Positions 24,779 through 29,969 of a stretch of DNA of 54,557 nucleotides are shown here, piece by piece. Positions within the stretch are counted from its first letter, which is position 1. Each line of letters opens with the position of its first letter. The DNA comes from Escherichia phage mEp044. The stretch lies in the sequence record PP180004; one strand, 5' to 3'. The notes beneath the pieces are model-generated. The model saw only the letters and a program-made list of their open reading frames with translations. It was not told where the DNA came from and ran no database searches. The translations under genes were made by a program, and so were the position numbers.

Positions 24779-24957
24779 TTGAAGATGGGATCTATGGTGT
24801 AAACCTGATGGAAAACGTTTTTTACATGGTGGAAGGCGATACCGTAACAATCAGCGTAGATGGTGGGGAATATGTAGAGCCATTCTTCAAAACAACAAGG
24901 GAAGACATTAAGCGAAGCGTTGATAACGGTATACTATTTAAGGTTGGCGAGCTATGA
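24775..24957 (+). CDS. small protein, paralog family B
   Basis: 60 aa; GDTVTISVDGGEYVEP...DNGILFK. Confidence 0.35.
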   Translation: MIEDGIYGVNLMENVFYMVEGDTVTISVDGGEYVEPFFKTTREDIKRSVDNGILFKVGEL

Positions 24958-25130
24958 ACGAGATTGAAGACGGTATCTATTTAAGCAAGTTATTTGACAT
25001 CGCCTATTTACTTAAAGGTGATAAGGTGATGATACAAAGTACAGACAATCCATACTGGGAATCAAGCAACGTGGATCGTGAACACCTGCAAACATTATTT
25101 GATAACGGCATGATATACAGAAAGCAGTAA
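24954..25130 (+). CDS. small protein, paralog family B
   Basis: manual translation, 58 aa; GDKVMIQSTDNPYWES...DNGMIYRK, parallel to the preceding ORF. Confidence 0.35.
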   Translation: MNEIEDGIYLSKLFDIAYLLKGDKVMIQSTDNPYWESSNVDREHLQTLFDNGMIYRKQ

Positions 25131-25138
25131 AGCCGTAT

Positions 25139-25167
25139 TTGTGGAGCGAAAACAAACAGATTAAAAT
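25139..25167 (+). promoter_or_regulatory. candidate late promoter (pR-prime-like): TTGTGG, 17 bp, TAAAAT
   Basis: -35/-10 with 17-bp spacer, 30 bp upstream of a terminator and just before the holin gene. Confidence 0.45.
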
Positions 25168-25195
25168 ATTCTCTAACAATGCGAAACTGTAACTA

Positions 25196-25217
25196 CCCGG
25201 CCCTGCGCCGGGTTTTT
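25196..25217 (+). terminator. rho-independent terminator between the late promoter and the holin gene (tR-prime-like, candidate target of Q)
   Basis: hairpin cccggc-cctgc-gccggg followed by TTTTT. Confidence 0.55.
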
Positions 25218-25237
25218 GCTTTGTTGGAGGTAAATCT

Positions 25238-25438
25238 ATGTTCGACAGAATACGGGCGGCGTGCGCTTATGTTACTGGGACCGTAACCGCTTTTTTCGGT
25301 GCTATAACCATTAATGATGTTGCCGTCTTCGTGGGTATCCTATCAACCATTGGCACATTTGCCGTTAATTATTACTTCAAATCACAGGAGAACAAGCGAG
25401 CGCAAGAGGAACACGACGCGCGAATGGGGAATAAGTAA
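25238..25438 (+). CDS. holin, phage-21 S-like (pinholin-type)
   Basis: 66 aa, two TM helices, charged C-terminus, directly upstream of a SAR endolysin. Confidence 0.75.
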
Positions 25439-25439
25439 C

Positions 25440-25931
25440 ATGATTAGCCAATCGCTGAAAAACAAAATTGTTGCGGCGGCGGCTGGTGGGGCGATCGCTA
25501 TTGCGGCGGTGATGATTAAGCCATTAGAGGGCGTGGAATACGATCCTTATCGTGATGTTGTTGGTGTATGGACTGTTTGCTATGGTCACACCGGAAAAGA
25601 CATCATGTTGGGCAAGACTTACACGCAATCAGAATGCGATGCTTTGTTAAATAAAGATCTACACAAGACCGCAAAAGCGATTGACCCATATATCAAAGTC
25701 GAAATATCAGATTTTACCCGCGCAGCACTTTATTCATTCGCCTATAACGTAGGCGCAACCAACTTCAAAACATCAACCTTATTAAAACTACTCAATGACG
25801 GTAAGAAATCAGAAGCGTGCGCACAGCTTAAACGTTGGGTATACGCTGGCGGTAAGAAGTGGCAAGGCCTGGTAAACCGCCGCGAGGTTGAATATGCCGT
25901 TTGCGAATGGGGTGAGACATGGACAAGGTGA
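25440..25931 (+). CDS. SAR endolysin (T4-lysozyme-like muramidase with N-terminal signal-anchor-release helix)
   Basis: ORF 25314-25931 with start at ATG 25440; strong resemblance to phage-21 R ([33 protein letters not shown]). Confidence 0.85.
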
Positions 25932-26389
25932 AGACGTTAATCATCGCCGCTGTTGTTTGCATTGTTGTTGGCCTTGTTGCCGCGCTCAGTCATTGCCAGT
26001 CAGTGATAAACACAATGCAAAGCGAGCTAACGACCACGCAAGGCGCACTGAAAACAGCAAGTAACACTATTCAGCAGATGAAGGAGCGAAACGCCGAACT
26101 GTCAAAACTTGATAAGAGGTATCACGATGAAATTAAAGCTATCAGATCTGACATTGCCGATCTGCGCACTGGCATTGATAGCGGCACTATCAGGCTGCGC
26201 GTCAACGCAATACCAGTGCGAGTGTCCGACCCCGCCGGAACCGCCAGCAGCATTGATGGAGCCTCCTGTAGACTCACTCCCGACGCTGAATCGGCTTATC
26301 TATCCCTCAGAGAACAACTAAAAGAGAAAGACGCGAAGATAACCGCGCTTCAGGGATACATCAAAACGCAGTGCTTACGCAAAGAATAA
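25919..26389 (+). CDS. Rz: i-spanin (Rz)
   Basis: 156 aa; N-terminal TM helix then coiled-coil periplasmic domain; position after endolysin. Confidence 0.75.
26127..26321 (+). CDS. Rz1: o-spanin (Rz1), lipoprotein embedded in Rz in the +1 frame
   Basis: ORF 26109-26321; lipobox LSGC and proline-rich mature part. Confidence 0.7.
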   Translation: MKLKLSDLTLPICALALIAALSGCASTQYQCECPTPPEPPAALMEPPVDSLPTLNRLIYPSENN

Positions 26390-26667
26390 CAGTGCGTTGA
26401 CGTGTCGCCGTTTCTGCCAGCCAGCCATAACCGGGCCAATCCTTCCCGCGAGCGACGGCGGAAATTCAAAAACACGTAATACCGGGTAAACAACCTCATT
26501 AACAGGTCCGGCGCTACCTGGGTAGAAGAAAGCGCCATCCACCAATTTTATAAAATTCTGTAAACGGTACTAACACAGCGCCGTTTTCAGTGTTTTATAG
26601 CTGTTTTCACTCCCTGCGGTGTCGAGTTTTGCGGGGGTTATATTTTTCAGGATAGAGGAATATTCTG

Positions 26668-27252
26668 ATGGCTAAGGCTAAAGGCATTAAGTTGCCTCAA
26701 TTCAAAGTCCCGCTCTTTGAGCATACAACCGTTTTCTTTTGCCCGACCCGCGAGATGTTCTATGAATTTTGCGAAAAGGCAGGGATCCCAATCGAACCTG
26801 ATTTCGAACTAGCAGGAGGATTAACACTTACTTGCACTGGTGAGAAAGGTGGTAACTTCTACGTGATCGCAGTATTCGACAATGAGTTGGGAACATTGGT
26901 ACATGAATGCGCTCACACCACATTCCATGTTTTAAGTGATGTAGGCGTCGTAGCGACAACTGATCCCAGCCATCCAGCAAATGAGACTTATGCTTACATG
27001 GTGGGCCGTATCTTTGACGCATTTTCCCCCATCCTGGCAGAATCAAATGAAGCACAGGTGGCAGCTATGCAGGCCGCTGAAGTCGTAGAGAAGGCATTAG
27101 AACAGGCAGAAAAGGCGACTGATGCAGCAGAACAGGCAGTTGAACAGGCAGATGAGCCGAAAGAAGAGAAAAAACCAGCTAAGAAAGGCAAACGTAAGCC
27201 GAAAGCAAAAGATGCGTATGTGCCGCGCGTGATGAGCTTTAAACGGGGGTGA
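26668..27252 (+). CDS. HExxH-motif protein (putative zinc metallopeptidase-like) with lysine-rich C-terminal tail
   Basis: 194 aa; LVHECAHTTFH motif; C-terminus KEEKKPAKKGKRKPKAK. Confidence 0.45.
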   Translation: MAKAKGIKLPQFKVPLFEHTTVFFCPTREMFYEFCEKAGIPIEPDFELAGGLTLTCTGEKGGNFYVIAVFDNELGTLVHECAHTTFHVLSDVGVVATTDPSHPANETYAYMVGRIFDAFSPILAESNEAQVAAMQAAEVVEKALEQAEKATDAAEQAVEQADEPKEEKKPAKKGKRKPKAKDAYVPRVMSFKRG

Positions 27253-27254
27253 TT

Positions 27255-27323
27255 ATGCTTACTTTTCTGTTAGGTTTATTTATCGGAATGGTTATCGCTG
27301 TAGCATTTCTATTATGGGAATAA
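27255..27323 (+). CDS. tiny hydrophobic peptide 1 (22 aa, MLTFLLGLFIGMVIAVAFLLWE)
   Basis: manual translation; GGGGTGA 5 nt upstream. Confidence 0.35.
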   Translation: MLTFLLGLFIGMVIAVAFLLWE

Positions 27324-27327
27324 TGTT

Positions 27328-27423
27328 ATGGACTCTTATGTCATAGCAGGATTGATCGGCGTTTCTGTATTTCTGGTGAGTTTTGTTATCGCCGTACTGA
27401 TAACCGTAAAGAGCAAGTATTAG
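27328..27423 (+). CDS. tiny hydrophobic peptide 2 (31 aa, MDSYVIAGLIGVSVFLVSFVIAVLITVKSKY)
   Basis: manual translation. Confidence 0.35.
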   Translation: MDSYVIAGLIGVSVFLVSFVIAVLITVKSKY

Positions 27424-27436
27424 ATGGGGTGGCAAG

Positions 27437-27511
27437 ATGATTGACCCGCTCATTATCCTTTCTGCCTGCGTCGCTGTATGGCTGGCGATCATGATATTCA
27501 TTGAAAGCTAA
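27437..27511 (+). CDS. tiny hydrophobic peptide 3 (24 aa, MIDPLIILSACVAVWLAIMIFIES)
   Basis: manual translation; GGGGTGG upstream. Confidence 0.35.
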   Translation: MIDPLIILSACVAVWLAIMIFIES

Positions 27512-27522
27512 AGGTTCTCATC

Positions 27523-27597
27523 ATGAATATTTACGATCTAATCTGGTGGTCGTTGGTCGCCGTCATTATCTATTTCTGGTGGAAGAATGTTGTATAG
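27523..27597 (+). CDS. tiny hydrophobic peptide 4 (24 aa, MNIYDLIWWSLVAVIIYFWWKNVV)
   Basis: manual translation. Confidence 0.35.
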   Translation: MNIYDLIWWSLVAVIIYFWWKNVV

Positions 27598-27604
27598 GTG
27601 AAGC

Positions 27605-27685
27605 ATGAACGCATACGAAATGCTATTACTGGTGGCTGTAGTTGTAGTCATTGCCGTTGATTTCTATCGAGGGTTTAAAAGATGA
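27605..27685 (+). CDS. tiny hydrophobic peptide 5 (26 aa, MNAYEMLLLVAVVVVIAVDFYRGFKR)
   Basis: manual translation; AGGTGA upstream. Confidence 0.35.
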   Translation: MNAYEMLLLVAVVVVIAVDFYRGFKR

Positions 27686-27753
27686 GAGAAGCAGACTTCT
27701 TTTGCATGATTATAGTGATCGTTATCGTTGCGGTGCTTTTAAGCGTTAACTGA
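27682..27753 (+). CDS. tiny hydrophobic peptide 6 (23 aa, MREADFFCMIIVIVIVAVLLSVN)
   Basis: manual translation; ATGA overlap with peptide 5. Confidence 0.3.
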   Translation: MREADFFCMIIVIVIVAVLLSVN

Positions 27754-27771
27754 ATCGCAGGGGGTTAAAAA

Positions 27772-27840
27772 ATGAAATGGCTTGATTTCTTTTTCCTGAT
27801 TGTTGCGATTGTTCTAACCATGACCGCGCTTGCTCAATAG
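27772..27840 (+). CDS. tiny hydrophobic peptide 7 (22 aa, MKWLDFFFLIVAIVLTMTALAQ)
   Basis: manual translation; AGGGGG upstream. Confidence 0.35.
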   Translation: MKWLDFFFLIVAIVLTMTALAQ

Positions 27841-27899
27841 GTTATGGCTTGGACGCGCATTTTATGCGCTTCCTAAATTAAGTAAGTCAAATAAAGTGG

Positions 27900-27992
27900 A
27901 TGGTAACAGTGAAAGAGCTATTCGACTGGTTGGAAGTATTAACATACTGCGCAAGTTTTGTAGCTTGCGTATACATCATCAATAAATATTGA
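27900..27992 (+). CDS. tiny hydrophobic peptide 8 (30 aa, MVTVKELFDWLEVLTYCASFVACVYIINKY)
   Basis: manual translation. Confidence 0.3.
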   Translation: MVTVKELFDWLEVLTYCASFVACVYIINKY

Positions 27993-28002
27993 GAGGTGAA
28001 AT

Positions 28003-28488
28003 ATGGCCCGCACTAAAAAGGCAAAGGCTGACGATAAAAAGCCAGCAGCCAAAAAGACGGGCCGTCCGCATGGTTATACCGAAGAAAAGGCATTAGAAAT
28101 CTGTGAGCTGGTGGCGGACGGTCAAAGCATTAACAAAATATCGAAGATGCCTGATATGCCTGCGCGTTCAACAATCCTTAAATGGTTCAGAGACGTGCCA
28201 GAGTTCTCGGACATGTACATGCGCGCGAAGGAGATCGGTTTTGAGGTATTGGCTGATGAGATAATAGATATAGCAGATGCAGCGGAGAACATTGATAAAG
28301 ACGAATGCCGCCGCCATCAATTGATGATTGAAACCCGTAAATGGCTACTAGCAAAACTGCAACCGCGTAAATATGGTGAACGCGTCACACAGGAGATCGT
28401 CGGTAACAAGGAAGAAGCACCCGTCAGGGTAGAAGTCACAAAAGAAGAGATCGCCCGCATCGTCCAGGAAGTAGAAGACGAGGTGTGA
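28003..28488 (+). CDS. terminase small subunit
   Basis: 161 aa; lysine-rich N-terminus, HTH region, immediately upstream of the large subunit. Confidence 0.7.
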   Translation: MARTKKAKADDKKPAAKKTGRPHGYTEEKALEICELVADGQSINKISKMPDMPARSTILKWFRDVPEFSDMYMRAKEIGFEVLADEIIDIADAAENIDKDECRRHQLMIETRKWLLAKLQPRKYGERVTQEIVGNKEEAPVRVEVTKEEIARIVQEVEDEV

Positions 28489-29969
28489 TTATGTTGACAA
28501 TCAGAGAACGAGTTATTCAGTCCAAATGTGAAAACGATGGCCTGTTTTTCAATCGCTACTTCTATAAGCAAGCGAACGGAACGAAGATGTTAATATCAGG
28601 CCATCATTTAGCTATCCGTGATGCACTGCAACGCGTTATTAATGGTGAGATAACCCGCCTCATCATTAACATTCCCCCAGGGTACGGCAAAACTATGATC
28701 GCGACTATCAACATGATGGCGCGGTCCCTCGCAATAAACCCCCGCACAAGATTCCTTCACGTTTCCTATTCCAACAACCTGGCATTACTCAATTCCTCGA
28801 CTGTAAGAAACATGATCTGTACGCCTGAATATCAGGCAATGTGGCCCATGAAGATCCGCAATGATGCCAACAGTAAATCTATGTGGTGGACCGAATACGG
28901 TGGCGGCGTGTATGCAACGTCATCGCTTGGCCAGGTGACAGGGTTTAGGGCAGGTTACATGGAGCCGGGATTTAACGGCGCGTTAATCATCGACGACCCA
29001 TTAAAACCCGCTGACGCTTACTCTGACGTGGTGAGAAAGCAGGTAAACACAAACTATAACGACACACTTGCTTCACGTCTGGCAGTGCAAACAACGCCTG
29101 TTATCGTCATCATGCAGCGCATCCACTACGATGATTTGTCCGGCTACCTGTTACGCGGCGGCAGTGGCGAAAAGTGGTATCACCTTAACCTGCCAGTGAA
29201 GATCGATAATAGCGTTGACTATTGGGATCTGTACCCTGAAAACGAGTTCGCAATCCCTATTGCTCACAACCTGCCAGACGGCTGGCTGTGGCCCAGGAAA
29301 CACAATGACGATCATGAAGCTGGACTGAAAGCACACAGGCGGTCATTCGAGGCCCAGTACATGCAGCGCCCGCGTAAATTCGACGAAGAGGGTGCATTGT
29401 GGACTGAAGCCATGATAACCGCTGCGCACCGGATGCAGATAACGCAGGACAAGATCCGCACGGTGATAGCCATCGACCCGGCGACAACATCATCTGATGA
29501 GTCGGACGAAACCGGGATCGTGGCATGTTCCGCCTATGGTGGCGGCAAGAATGCTCAGTATTCTGTTGATGGTGACTATTCAGGCCGCATGTCACCTAAC
29601 GACTGGGCGCAGGCATCAATGAACGCATACAACATCCATGAAGCTGACGCGATAGTTATCGAAACAAACCAGGGCGGCGAAATGGCAGAGGCCACGCTAC
29701 GCAATGCCGGATTTAAAGGCCGCATTGTTAAGGTGCACGCAAGCAAAGGTAAGTTCGCCCGCGCTGAACCAATATCTGCATTGTATGCACAAGGAAGGGT
29801 GGCCCACACTGGTGAGCTGTACACGCTGGAAAATCAAATGATGGAATACGTGCCAGCCACCGCCAAAAAATCACCTGACCGTATGGACGCTATGGTATGG
29901 GGTATCACTGAATTAAGCCAACCACAGGCTATGGGCCTCATGTTACCAAAGCGCCTGCGCGGATTTTAA
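28485..29969 (+). CDS. terminase large subunit
   Basis: 494 aa; Walker-A-like PPGYGKT; C-terminal nuclease region with acidic motifs. Confidence 0.85.
   Translation: MIMLTIRERVIQSKCENDGLFFNRYFYKQANGTKMLISGHHLAIRDALQRVINGEITRLIINIPPGYGKTMIATINMMARSLAINPRTRFLHVSYSNNLALLNSSTVRNMICTPEYQAMWPMKIRNDANSKSMWWTEYGGGVYATSSLGQVTGFRAGYMEPGFNGALIIDDPLKPADAYSDVVRKQVNTNYNDTLASRLAVQTTPVIVIMQRIHYDDLSGYLLRGGSGEKWYHLNLPVKIDNSVDYWDLYPENEFAIPIAHNLPDGWLWPRKHNDDHEAGLKAHRRSFEAQYMQRPRKFDEEGALWTEAMITAAHRMQITQDKIRTVIAIDPATTSSDESDETGIVACSAYGGGKNAQYSVDGDYSGRMSPNDWAQASMNAYNIHEADAIVIETNQGGEMAEATLRNAGFKGRIVKVHASKGKFARAEPISALYAQGRVAHTGELYTLENQMMEYVPATAKKSPDRMDAMVWGITELSQPQAMGLMLPKRLRGF

Follow-up and report, generated by a model that had tools for sequence, protein, structure and literature searches.

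An array of eight predicted single-helix mini-genes between the lysis and terminase genes of Escherichia phage mEp044 and its variation among related phages and prophages

Small phage membrane proteins are already known, and several described systems invite comparison with a dense array of eight mini-genes located at positions 27255-27992, between the lysis and terminase genes, of Escherichia phage mEp044 (sequence record PP180004; the whole stretch analysed, 54,557 nucleotides (nt) in length, is referred to below as the window). Antiholins, such as RI of phage T4, are accessory lysis proteins. LysF1b of the F1 mycobacteriophages is likewise an accessory protein which tunes lysis, and has a single transmembrane (TM) domain in N-out/C-in orientation (PMC13056207). 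The mini-genes resemble the genes for these proteins in being phage-encoded, small, located near lysis genes and apparently individually non-essential, in encoding a predicted single N-out/C-in helix and, probably, in being expressed late. LysF1b and the antiholins are, however, several times longer, are encoded by one or two genes and lie inside the lysis cassette, whereas the array of mEp044 and its relatives in the mEpimmI group, to which this phage belongs, encodes 2-13 peptides, each 20-47 residues long, that have hardly any soluble domain and no sequence similarity to those proteins, and is situated beyond a 280-bp gap and another gene.

The bacterial proteins AcrZ, MgrB, MgtS, KdpF and CydX are small single-TM proteins which typically act by binding larger membrane proteins. 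The mini-gene products share with them a length of fewer than 50 residues, one hydrophobic helix and a tendency to be overlooked by annotation, a resemblance in size and design only; proteins of the AcrZ/MgrB class are encoded by single chromosomal genes with their own regulation, whereas the mEp044 genes form a dense, coupled and hypervariable array in a phage late operon. Operons that encode several tiny peptides from separate ribosome-binding sites are also found among the staphylococcal psm-alpha genes and the multi-peptide leaderless bacteriocins, where about four open reading frames (ORFs) of 20-35 codons lie back-to-back, each with its own Shine-Dalgarno (SD) sequence, as in the phage array. 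Those peptides are, however, amphipathic, often cationic and exported, while the phage peptides have uncharged, predicted membrane-spanning cores, and no exporter gene is annotated among the flanking genes examined. In the tiny coat protein of phage Pf3 a single helix is flanked by a short acidic N-tail and a basic C-end, and the protein inserts N-out without a signal peptide. The mini-gene products are similarly very small, with an acidic N-tail and one helix, and may work like it; unlike them, the Pf3 coat forms part of the virion structure of a filamentous phage, and there is no homology between the two.

Fozo et al. are said to have described the type I toxin peptides Ibs/Sib and Ldr/Rdl as occurring in tandem copies. 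These toxins are hydrophobic peptides of 18-35 residues encoded by tandem paralogues that are missed by gene finders, and the eight peptides of mEp044, at 22-31 aa, fall within the type I size class of hydrophobic products below 60 aa. The toxin genes have their own promoter and an antisense RNA, whereas the mini-genes are most simply co-transcribed, are coupled, and belong to diverged families rather than repeats. In a consensus scan, the minus strand from 24,900 to 28,600 contained no promoter-like site, and the array gave no Rfam match better than expected by chance. With no antisense promoter, no small RNA (sRNA) match, no stand-alone promoter and no match to the Hok, Ldr, Ibs, TisB, ShoB or Fst families, a type I toxin-antitoxin array is not supported. 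What is new in the mEp044 locus, in comparison with all of these systems, is that up to 13 different single-helix micro-genes, coupled and under purifying selection, form a dense and hypervariable array in a fixed slot.

When all ORFs of at least 20 codons between positions 26900 and 28400 were listed, eight tightly packed ATG-initiated ORFs of 22-31 codons were found on the plus strand at 27255-27992. All three reading frames are used, and 626 of the 750 bases between the stop codon of the upstream gene and the small terminase subunit gene, terS, are covered. A preliminary description of this DNA had recorded the eight back-to-back ORFs, an ATGA overlap and a number of SD-like strings (GGGGTGA before ORF1, GGGGTGG before ORF3, AGGTGA before ORF5 and AGGGGG before ORF7), all of which are present as described. 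Non-overlapping ATG ORFs with TM-like products number eight on the plus strand and zero on the minus strand of this region, against a maximum of three in 2000 dinucleotide-preserving shuffles. Furthermore, when both strands of the window were scanned, no 750-bp stretch with at least four TM-like ORFs was found outside the array locus.

The slot between the stop codon of the upstream gene, which encodes a 194-aa HExxH protein, and terS was compared in 70 genomes in all, drawn from 6 phage loci, 14 prophage loci, 47 viral contigs anchored on the upstream protein and 2 more divergent contigs. An array of 2-13 mini-genes occupies this slot in 70/70 of these related phages and prophages. From 68 of the genomes 631 mini-ORFs were scored, while the two further genomes were read by eye, and clustering at 60% identity or more grouped the 631 into approximately 19 peptide families, labelled A-R, x1 and x2, with L and M merged into a single cluster; the complement of mEp044 is B, C, E, F, I, J, K and R. 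In Nei-Gojobori counts over all allele pairs, the pooled ratio of non-synonymous to synonymous differences per site (pN/pS) is 0.24 in the proposed frames, as compared with 0.93 and 1.47 in the other plus-strand frames and 0.80, 0.35 and 1.94 in the minus-strand frames. The low antisense value of 0.35 arises because the wobble positions of that frame coincide with the sense wobble, a known artefact. Individual families have ratios of 0.09-0.36 where more than two alleles are available, and the ratio is below 0.4 in every one of the 19 families. The mini-ORFs cover a median of 94% of the array span, and the pairing energy with the anti-SD sequence averages -5.1 kcal/mol at the 631 starts, in comparison with -2.0 at random positions. 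Distances between neighbouring mini-ORFs peak at -4 (ATGA; 111 cases), +8 (94 cases), -8 (52 cases) and +11 nt (50 cases), a pattern of translational coupling. This comparative evidence shows the array to be an operonic set of eight real protein-coding mini-genes under purifying selection. The suggestion that the ORFs are genuinely translated rather than due to chance, for which a lack of frame conservation in related phages had been named as one form of counter-evidence, is thus borne out at the level of sequence comparison by frame conservation across the 70 genomes, the pooled pN/pS of 0.24, the SD enrichment and the coupling spacings.

It is, as such, extremely improbable that the region represents a non-coding packaging site (pac/cos) or regulatory region, a decayed multi-pass gene or a minus-strand gene. 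The region does lie directly 5′ of terS, where cos sits in lambda-like phages, is T-rich with a GC content of 0.40-0.42 (56% of the bases at codon position 2 of the mini-ORFs are T), is almost empty in RefSeq and bears a 129-aa minus-strand call in one genome. Chance ORFs within a pac/cos site are nevertheless contradicted by the frame-specific purifying selection, by the SD enrichment and by the eight ORFs found where shuffles yield three at most. Furthermore, the small terminase is of the Sf6 family, whose type phage, Sf6, packages by a headful mechanism, and none of the repeats or inverted repeats typical of terminase-binding sites were found. A single polytopic gene decayed into pieces was rejected on the grounds that three frames are used, that each ORF has its own start and SD sequence, and that the mini-genes behave as cassettes. 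The minus-strand gene, which corresponds to a PGAP call in strain LSU61, was rejected since a minus-strand ORF of at least 60 aa is absent from 48/68 arrays and the antisense ratio of 0.35 is the wobble artefact.

Mini-genes are separated by -8 to +17 nt and are coupled, with the coupling spacings unbroken from the stop of the upstream gene to the strong SD of terS (AGAGGTGA), located just past the stop of mini-gene 8. A chain of this kind could act in cis, with the coupled mini-ORFs holding ribosomes on the mRNA against Rho or decay and setting the number of ribosomes that reach terS, the peptides themselves being incidental; a variable number of ORFs could then tune terS output. We regard this as improbable. 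A relay would need open frames only, yet the amino acids are conserved (pN/pS 0.09-0.36) and the design of acidic tail and helix is kept throughout, terS has its own strong SD sequence, and arrays of 2 and of 13 ORFs both exist among the relatives.

Each of the eight ORFs had been described as encoding one hydrophobic helix, and the Kyte-Doolittle maxima over 19 residues (KD19), which range from 1.5 to 2.9, agree with this for the six that exceed the threshold of 1.6, while ORF4 (1.55) and ORF8 (1.51), which have shorter hydrophobic cores, fall just below it. Among the 631 peptides, D or E occurs at residues 2-7 in 561 and the N-terminal flank is net-negative in 15/19 families; the uncharged core is 18 residues long at the median, and the flank C-terminal to it is neutral or basic. 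Amphipathic character is absent from the uncharged helix cores. The polar ends are short, with C-terminal flanks of 0-8 residues and a net charge of -1 to +2 in the window peptides. Family P, which is absent from the window, differs in having a basic C-tail of 11 residues. Families B, C and G contain GxxxG-type motifs, a hint of helix packing, and the variable positions have no significant helical periodicity in any family. By the positive-inside rule, and by analogy with the Pf3 coat, the peptides are predicted to insert into the inner membrane N-out/C-in without a signal peptide, and insertion would be post-translational because peptides so short leave the ribosome only on release.

We tentatively favor the reading, which falls short of probable, that the products are late-expressed N-out/C-in inner-membrane micro-proteins that bind other helices and, in an accessory capacity, modulate membrane events towards the end of infection. 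The array would be carried on a late transcript which spans the lysis cassette and the HExxH gene and extends into the terminase genes, along which ribosomes may move from mini-gene to mini-gene by way of ATGA overlaps or spacers of 8-11 nt, with the SD sequence in the end of the preceding gene. Each peptide would consist of a very short acidic N-tail, an uncharged helix of 13-24 residues and a neutral or basic C-stub. The first candidate role is in the timing or robustness of the pathway of lysis by pinholin and signal-arrest-release (SAR) endolysin, which is sensitive to the proton motive force (PMF) and is encoded approximately 1 kb upstream. This role is suggested by the position and timing of the array and by the precedent of single-TM N-out/C-in accessory lysis proteins. 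Alternatively, the peptides may block host inner-membrane proteins.

Several observations weigh against this reading. The link to lysis is one of position only, and both the 280-bp gap, which holds a terminator-like hairpin, and the 194-aa gene intervene. The lysis and terminase modules are common to all 70 genomes, and no natural swaps occur among 67 loci. P22-like phages, in which the same upstream gene occupies the same slot, achieve lysis although they have no array, and the variation in copy number, between 2 and 13, speaks against a stoichiometric role. The lack of significant helical periodicity gives no sign of a conserved binding face, and the cores of families F, I and R, with 13-16 uncharged residues, make full spanning of the membrane uncertain. 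The selection data should also be read with the low antisense ratio in mind, as the wobble-coincident frame (pN/pS 0.35) is expected to be low and is not independent evidence.

The proximity of a PMF-sensitive pinholin/SAR-endolysin system, with which the array is probably transcribed, also bears on whether the peptides are depolarizing, either like type I toxins or like holins by mass action, with their accumulation collapsing the PMF, triggering the pinholin and so releasing the SAR endolysin. In size and hydrophobicity they are like the Ibs, Ldr and ShoB-type toxins, some of which occur in tandem, and family P, which does not occur in the window, combines its basic C-tail with faint matches to holin profiles (E = 0.04). 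We nevertheless consider such a role unlikely. Neither an antisense promoter nor an sRNA match is present, and the genes form a tightly coupled operon, instead of each standing alone after a long 5′ untranslated region. Searches of Pfam, NCBIfam and PHROGs matched none of the models for Hok, Ldr, Ibs, TisB or holins, and the cores are uncharged and non-amphipathic with short polar ends. All eight window peptides do possess, as holins do, at least one predicted TM helix (KD19 1.5-2.9). They lack, however, the hydrophilic and highly charged C-terminal domain, match no holin family in Pfam, PHROG or NCBIfam, and are not encoded adjacent to the endolysin, the array being located 1.3 kb past the endolysin gene, after Rz/Rz1, the gap and the 194-aa gene.

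The gene content of the array varies extensively among the relatives. The order of the genes is nearly fixed, save for a few rearrangements of B and C, while their presence varies, with at least 44 presence/absence architectures in 68 genomes. Near-universal families are I (66 of 68), E (65), K (63) and R or the allelic Q (66; R in 61 and Q in 5), and the smallest array consists of O and R. The L/M and N genes overlap by 8 nt and co-occur. By contrast, the paralogues J and O are found together in 0 genomes, J only in 23 and O only in 24 (p = 6.5e-6, uncorrected for phylogeny). Where the adjacent 400 nt of terS DNA are at least 99.5% identical, 50% of genome pairs share an architecture, whereas at 95-99.5% identity the proportion is 0%. 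The mini-genes thus appear, from these comparisons, to be accessory to one phage lineage and dispensable one by one, with rapid reshuffling of the set.

This turnover lends itself to an explanation in which the array is a combinatorial toolkit, each peptide binding a different inner-membrane target of the host or of a competitor and the repertoire being shuffled by an arms race. Candidate targets include membrane-embedded abortive-infection effectors, the DNA-entry channels of superinfecting phages, proteases and transporters. Very fast change in gene content despite purifying selection on each peptide is in keeping with such a toolkit, as is the mutual exclusion of J and O, which would be expected of alternative versions of one function. 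The limitation of the array to one lineage and the general tendency of small bacterial single-TM proteins to bind larger membrane proteins likewise favor it. However, the array has no independent promoter, which makes expression in the lysogen unlikely, and classical superinfection exclusion by a prophage requires such expression. The mEpimmI group moreover already possesses a characterized Lpp/Cor-type exclusion protein and repressor immunity (PMC11893012), and no match was found in PADLOC or to any other family. We hold the toolkit to be a possible explanation, doubtful in itself but nearly as likely as the lysis-related one, and it better explains the combinatorial turnover and the mutually exclusive paralogues.

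The locus might further constitute a new kind of accessory island, composed of hypervariable TM micro-peptides that are each a minimal inhibitor of a different membrane-embedded function of the host or of a rival phage, for example abortive-infection pores, DNA-entry channels or proteases, a broader interpretation which we think rather unlikely. It would have been assembled by duplication and cassette exchange, as in anti-defence islands, entirely from single helices of about 25 residues. If the peptides do act on lysis or on host membrane proteins, the array would provide a compact and genetically tractable set of natural TM modulators in a culturable K-12 phage. The mEp044 array would then make the function of phage micro-proteins directly testable, by deletion and by expression of single genes.

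The individual mini-genes of mEp044 are all encoded on the plus strand. Mini-gene 1 (27255..27323; family B, present in 55/68 genomes) starts 2 nt past the stop codon of the upstream 194-aa gene, and the two may therefore be functionally linked. Its product of 22 aa, MLTFLLGLFIGMVIAVAFLLWE, contains the GxxxG motif GLFIG, and the gene has an SD pairing energy of -9.9 kcal/mol and a pN/pS of 0.32. Mini-gene 2 (27328..27423; family C, 59/68; pN/pS 0.26) encodes 31 aa, MDSYVIAGLIGVSVFLVSFVIAVLITVKSKY, with an AGLIG motif, and corresponds to the deposited protein mEp044_73 (WWQ70571.1), the sole window peptide present in the protein collection searched. The near-universal family E (65/68) is represented by mini-gene 3 (27437..27511; 24 aa, MIDPLIILSACVAVWLAIMIFIES; SD -7.1 kcal/mol; pN/pS 0.29). 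It is followed by mini-gene 4 (27523..27597; family F, 45/68; pN/pS 0.26), the Trp/Tyr-rich product of which (24 aa, MNIYDLIWWSLVAVIIYFWWKNVV; KD19 1.55) has an uncharged core of 15 residues; family F is a paralogue of families D, x1 and I. The most widespread family, I (66/68; pN/pS 0.24), includes mini-gene 5 (27605..27685; 26 aa, MNAYEMLLLVAVVVVIAVDFYRGFKR), whose 3′ codons carry the SD sequence of mini-gene 6 (27682..27753; family J, 23/68; 23 aa, MREADFFCMIIVIVIVAVLLSVN). These two genes share the ATGA overlap, at 27682-27685, and family J is a paralogue of K and O. Mini-gene 7 (27772..27840; 22 aa, MKWLDFFFLIVAIVLTMTALAQ) belongs to family K (63/68) and has an SD pairing energy of -10.1 kcal/mol and a pN/pS of 0.14.

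A non-coding spacer of 59 nt (27841..27899), containing an imperfect hairpin (GGACGCGCAU-UUU-AUGCGCUUCC), separates mini-genes 7 and 8. It is the same in the 11 genomes in which R or Q directly succeeds K, and the folding energy of the hairpin is no better than that of shuffled sequences (z = -1.5). On comparison of the spacers with the cassette sequences, the possibility that this spacer is a decayed cassette was rejected. Mini-gene 8 (27900..27992; family R, pN/pS 0.09) encodes M(VTV)KELFDWLEVLTYCASFVACVYIINKY, which is 30 aa from the ATG at 27900 or 27 aa from the GTG at 27909. The GTG has the stronger SD (-6.8 kcal/mol vs -0.9 for the ATG) and, judging from this and from the 27-aa MKELF... 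form of most relatives which it yields, may be the start. R is the most constrained of the families, lies directly 5′ of terS in nearly every genome and is kept in the minimal two-gene array.

The eight peptides had been characterized as not being obvious copies of one another. This stands at the DNA level, where no repeat longer than 21 nt occurs inside the window array, but not for all of the proteins. Alignment scores against shuffled partners reveal paralogy between families Q and R (z = 13), D and I (11.6), J and O (10), F and x1 (9.3), K and O (6.5), J and K (6.3), D and F (4.8), and F and I (4.2). In mEp044, ORF6 and ORF7 (z = 6.3) and ORF4 and ORF5 (z = 4.2) therefore constitute related pairs, while families B, C and E show no demonstrable relation to other families in protein scoring against shuffles. 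The paralogy of some families indicates that the array grew partly by duplication. Strings at the gene junctions are also repeated, for example GG(A/G)GTTTAAAA(A/G)ATG ahead of J, K and O, and the C-terminal allele of family I co-varies with the identity of the next gene. Taken together, the paralogy and the repeated junctions fit growth by tandem duplication, with subsequent divergence, and recombination at the repeated gene borders, through which whole cassettes are gained and lost, may account for the variable content. Furthermore, sequences 95-100% identical to cassette DNA occur in 10 of the 22 long spacers, and these appear to be inactivated, or uncalled, cassettes. Examples include remnants of N between L/M and R (loci L056-L060), of F (L029 and L053) and of C (L022), suggesting that mini-genes disappear through decay in addition to clean deletion. 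The array thereby provides a natural experiment on how the smallest membrane proteins arise by duplication, diverge, and come and go.

The DNA of the region matches six phage records (mEp021, mEp013, mEp010, mEp554, mEp515 and MagusPhagus), as well as prophages in 35/5,426 complete E. coli genomes. A tblastn search with all families against 50,697 phage records returned only the six mEpimmI-type phages, and a phmmer search with peptide C among 1.84 billion representative proteins only four relatives, at 77-90% identity. A DNA motif back-translated from peptide E was found in 36 of 2.9 million viral contigs, all of them already known through the upstream gene, and an alignment scan for R and Q detected neither family in any of 100,044 species-representative genomes. 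No peptide has a significant match in Pfam, NCBIfam, PHROGs or PADLOC, with no toxin match in Pfam or NCBIfam at E ≤ 0.01. An array is also absent from P22-like phages with the shared upstream gene and from four distant phages with an Sf6-type terS, in a small sample of six loci. These searches suggest that the array is confined, as far as searched, to one lineage of E. coli phages. The remark that no such array was known at this position elsewhere consequently holds as far as tested, given that homologues occur only in mEpimmI-type phages and that P22-like phages have the same slot without an array. The array goes unmentioned in the publication on mEp044 and its group, and no description of such arrays was found in full-text literature searches, which covered few subscription journals.

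In the prophages of the 35 complete E. coli genomes the RefSeq annotation leaves the slot, of 0.75-1.1 kb, almost empty, and peptides of fewer than 30 residues do not occur in a protein collection of approximately 15 billion sequences. PHANOTATE-based records call some of the mini-genes, together with some wrong-frame fusions. As such, standard pipelines miss a whole block of selected genes, in place of which some phage records hold wrong-frame fusions, and the approximately 19 micro-protein families, which share the design of acidic tail, helix and stub, are new and to our knowledge undescribed. Probable fusions of this kind are located at 2565-2777 of locus L002 and at 2570-2773 and 3005-3148 of L004, one example being MVGGRRHYLFLVEE... 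joined to family G. The 129-aa minus-strand ORF called by PGAP at 1598-1987 of L014 (E. coli O157:H7 LSU61) is also a probable mis-annotation.

No sigma-70-like promoter site was found inside the array on either strand in a consensus scan. This absence, together with the co-orientation of the array with the late genes, suggests that expression from the late transcript is the simplest arrangement. The only nearby promoter-like site, at 27014-27043, approximately 210 bp 5′ of the array, was rejected, because in 68 genomes its hexamers show variation at synonymous sites. No conserved promoter and terminator bracket the array as they would a moron, an accessory gene expressed independently within a late operon, and the lower GC content of the array (0.40-0.42 vs 0.45-0.54), which might suggest a moron by base composition, is attributable to codon choice for hydrophobic residues. 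The gene-free gap of 280 bp between Rz and the 194-aa gene (26390-26667) contains a terminator-like hairpin near 26603-26640, and terminators are annotated at the equivalent position in mEp021 and mEp013. Should this hairpin terminate transcription, the array and the terminase genes would lie behind a terminator and would need read-through. Another strong intrinsic-terminator-like hairpin, with a 7-bp stem containing 6 GC pairs and followed by a T-run, is located at 25195-25213, 25 nt 5′ of the holin start, and is reminiscent of the lambdoid-phage terminator located past the late promoter.

The genes flanking the array are as had been stated, namely a holin, a SAR endolysin, Rz/Rz1 and an HExxH protein. 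The holin gene (25238-25438) encodes a product of 66 aa with two TM helices, whose homologue in the relatives belongs to Phage_holin_2_3. It is followed by a lysozyme gene with a SAR-like N-terminus (ORF 25314-25931; 205 aa from the ATG at 25314) and by Rz with an embedded Rz1 (25919-26389). In the relatives the lysozyme is annotated as a protein of 163 aa, corresponding to a start near 25440, directly past the holin stop, which exposes the Ala/Gly-rich SAR-like N-terminus. On the other side of the array, terS (28003..28488, plus strand; Sf6_terminase family), the right border of the slot, is followed by the genes for the large terminase and then the portal.

The left border of the slot in 70/70 genomes is the gene for the 194-aa protein (26668..27252, plus strand; phrog_1365). 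This protein contains an invariant H79-E80-x-x-H83-x-x-x-H87 motif, a long helix and a Lys-rich disordered tail. Its AlphaFold model, of moderate confidence (predicted local distance difference test score, pLDDT, 76.6), consists of a small sheet, the HExxH helix, a helix of approximately 60 residues and the disordered tail, and a Foldseek search with it returned no match in the PDB at E ≤ 0.001. A relative sharing 59% identity carries the label 'PolyVal metallopeptidase superfamily' in one source. The N-terminal 125 residues recur in P22-like phages at 36-46% identity; the homologue occupies the slot between lysis and terminase genes in ST64T, ST104 and epsilon34, and is found elsewhere in P22 and HK620, near sieA in P22. 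In mEp013 an HNH endonuclease gene is located between the 194-aa gene and the array. HNH endonuclease genes are present at 1998-2483 of L002 (mEp013), 2252-2773 of L070 and 4750-5253 of L071, and their sites differ, lying after a truncated copy of the 194-aa gene, at endolysin/Rz, and between the small and large terminase genes, such that they look like mobile, homing-type insertions.

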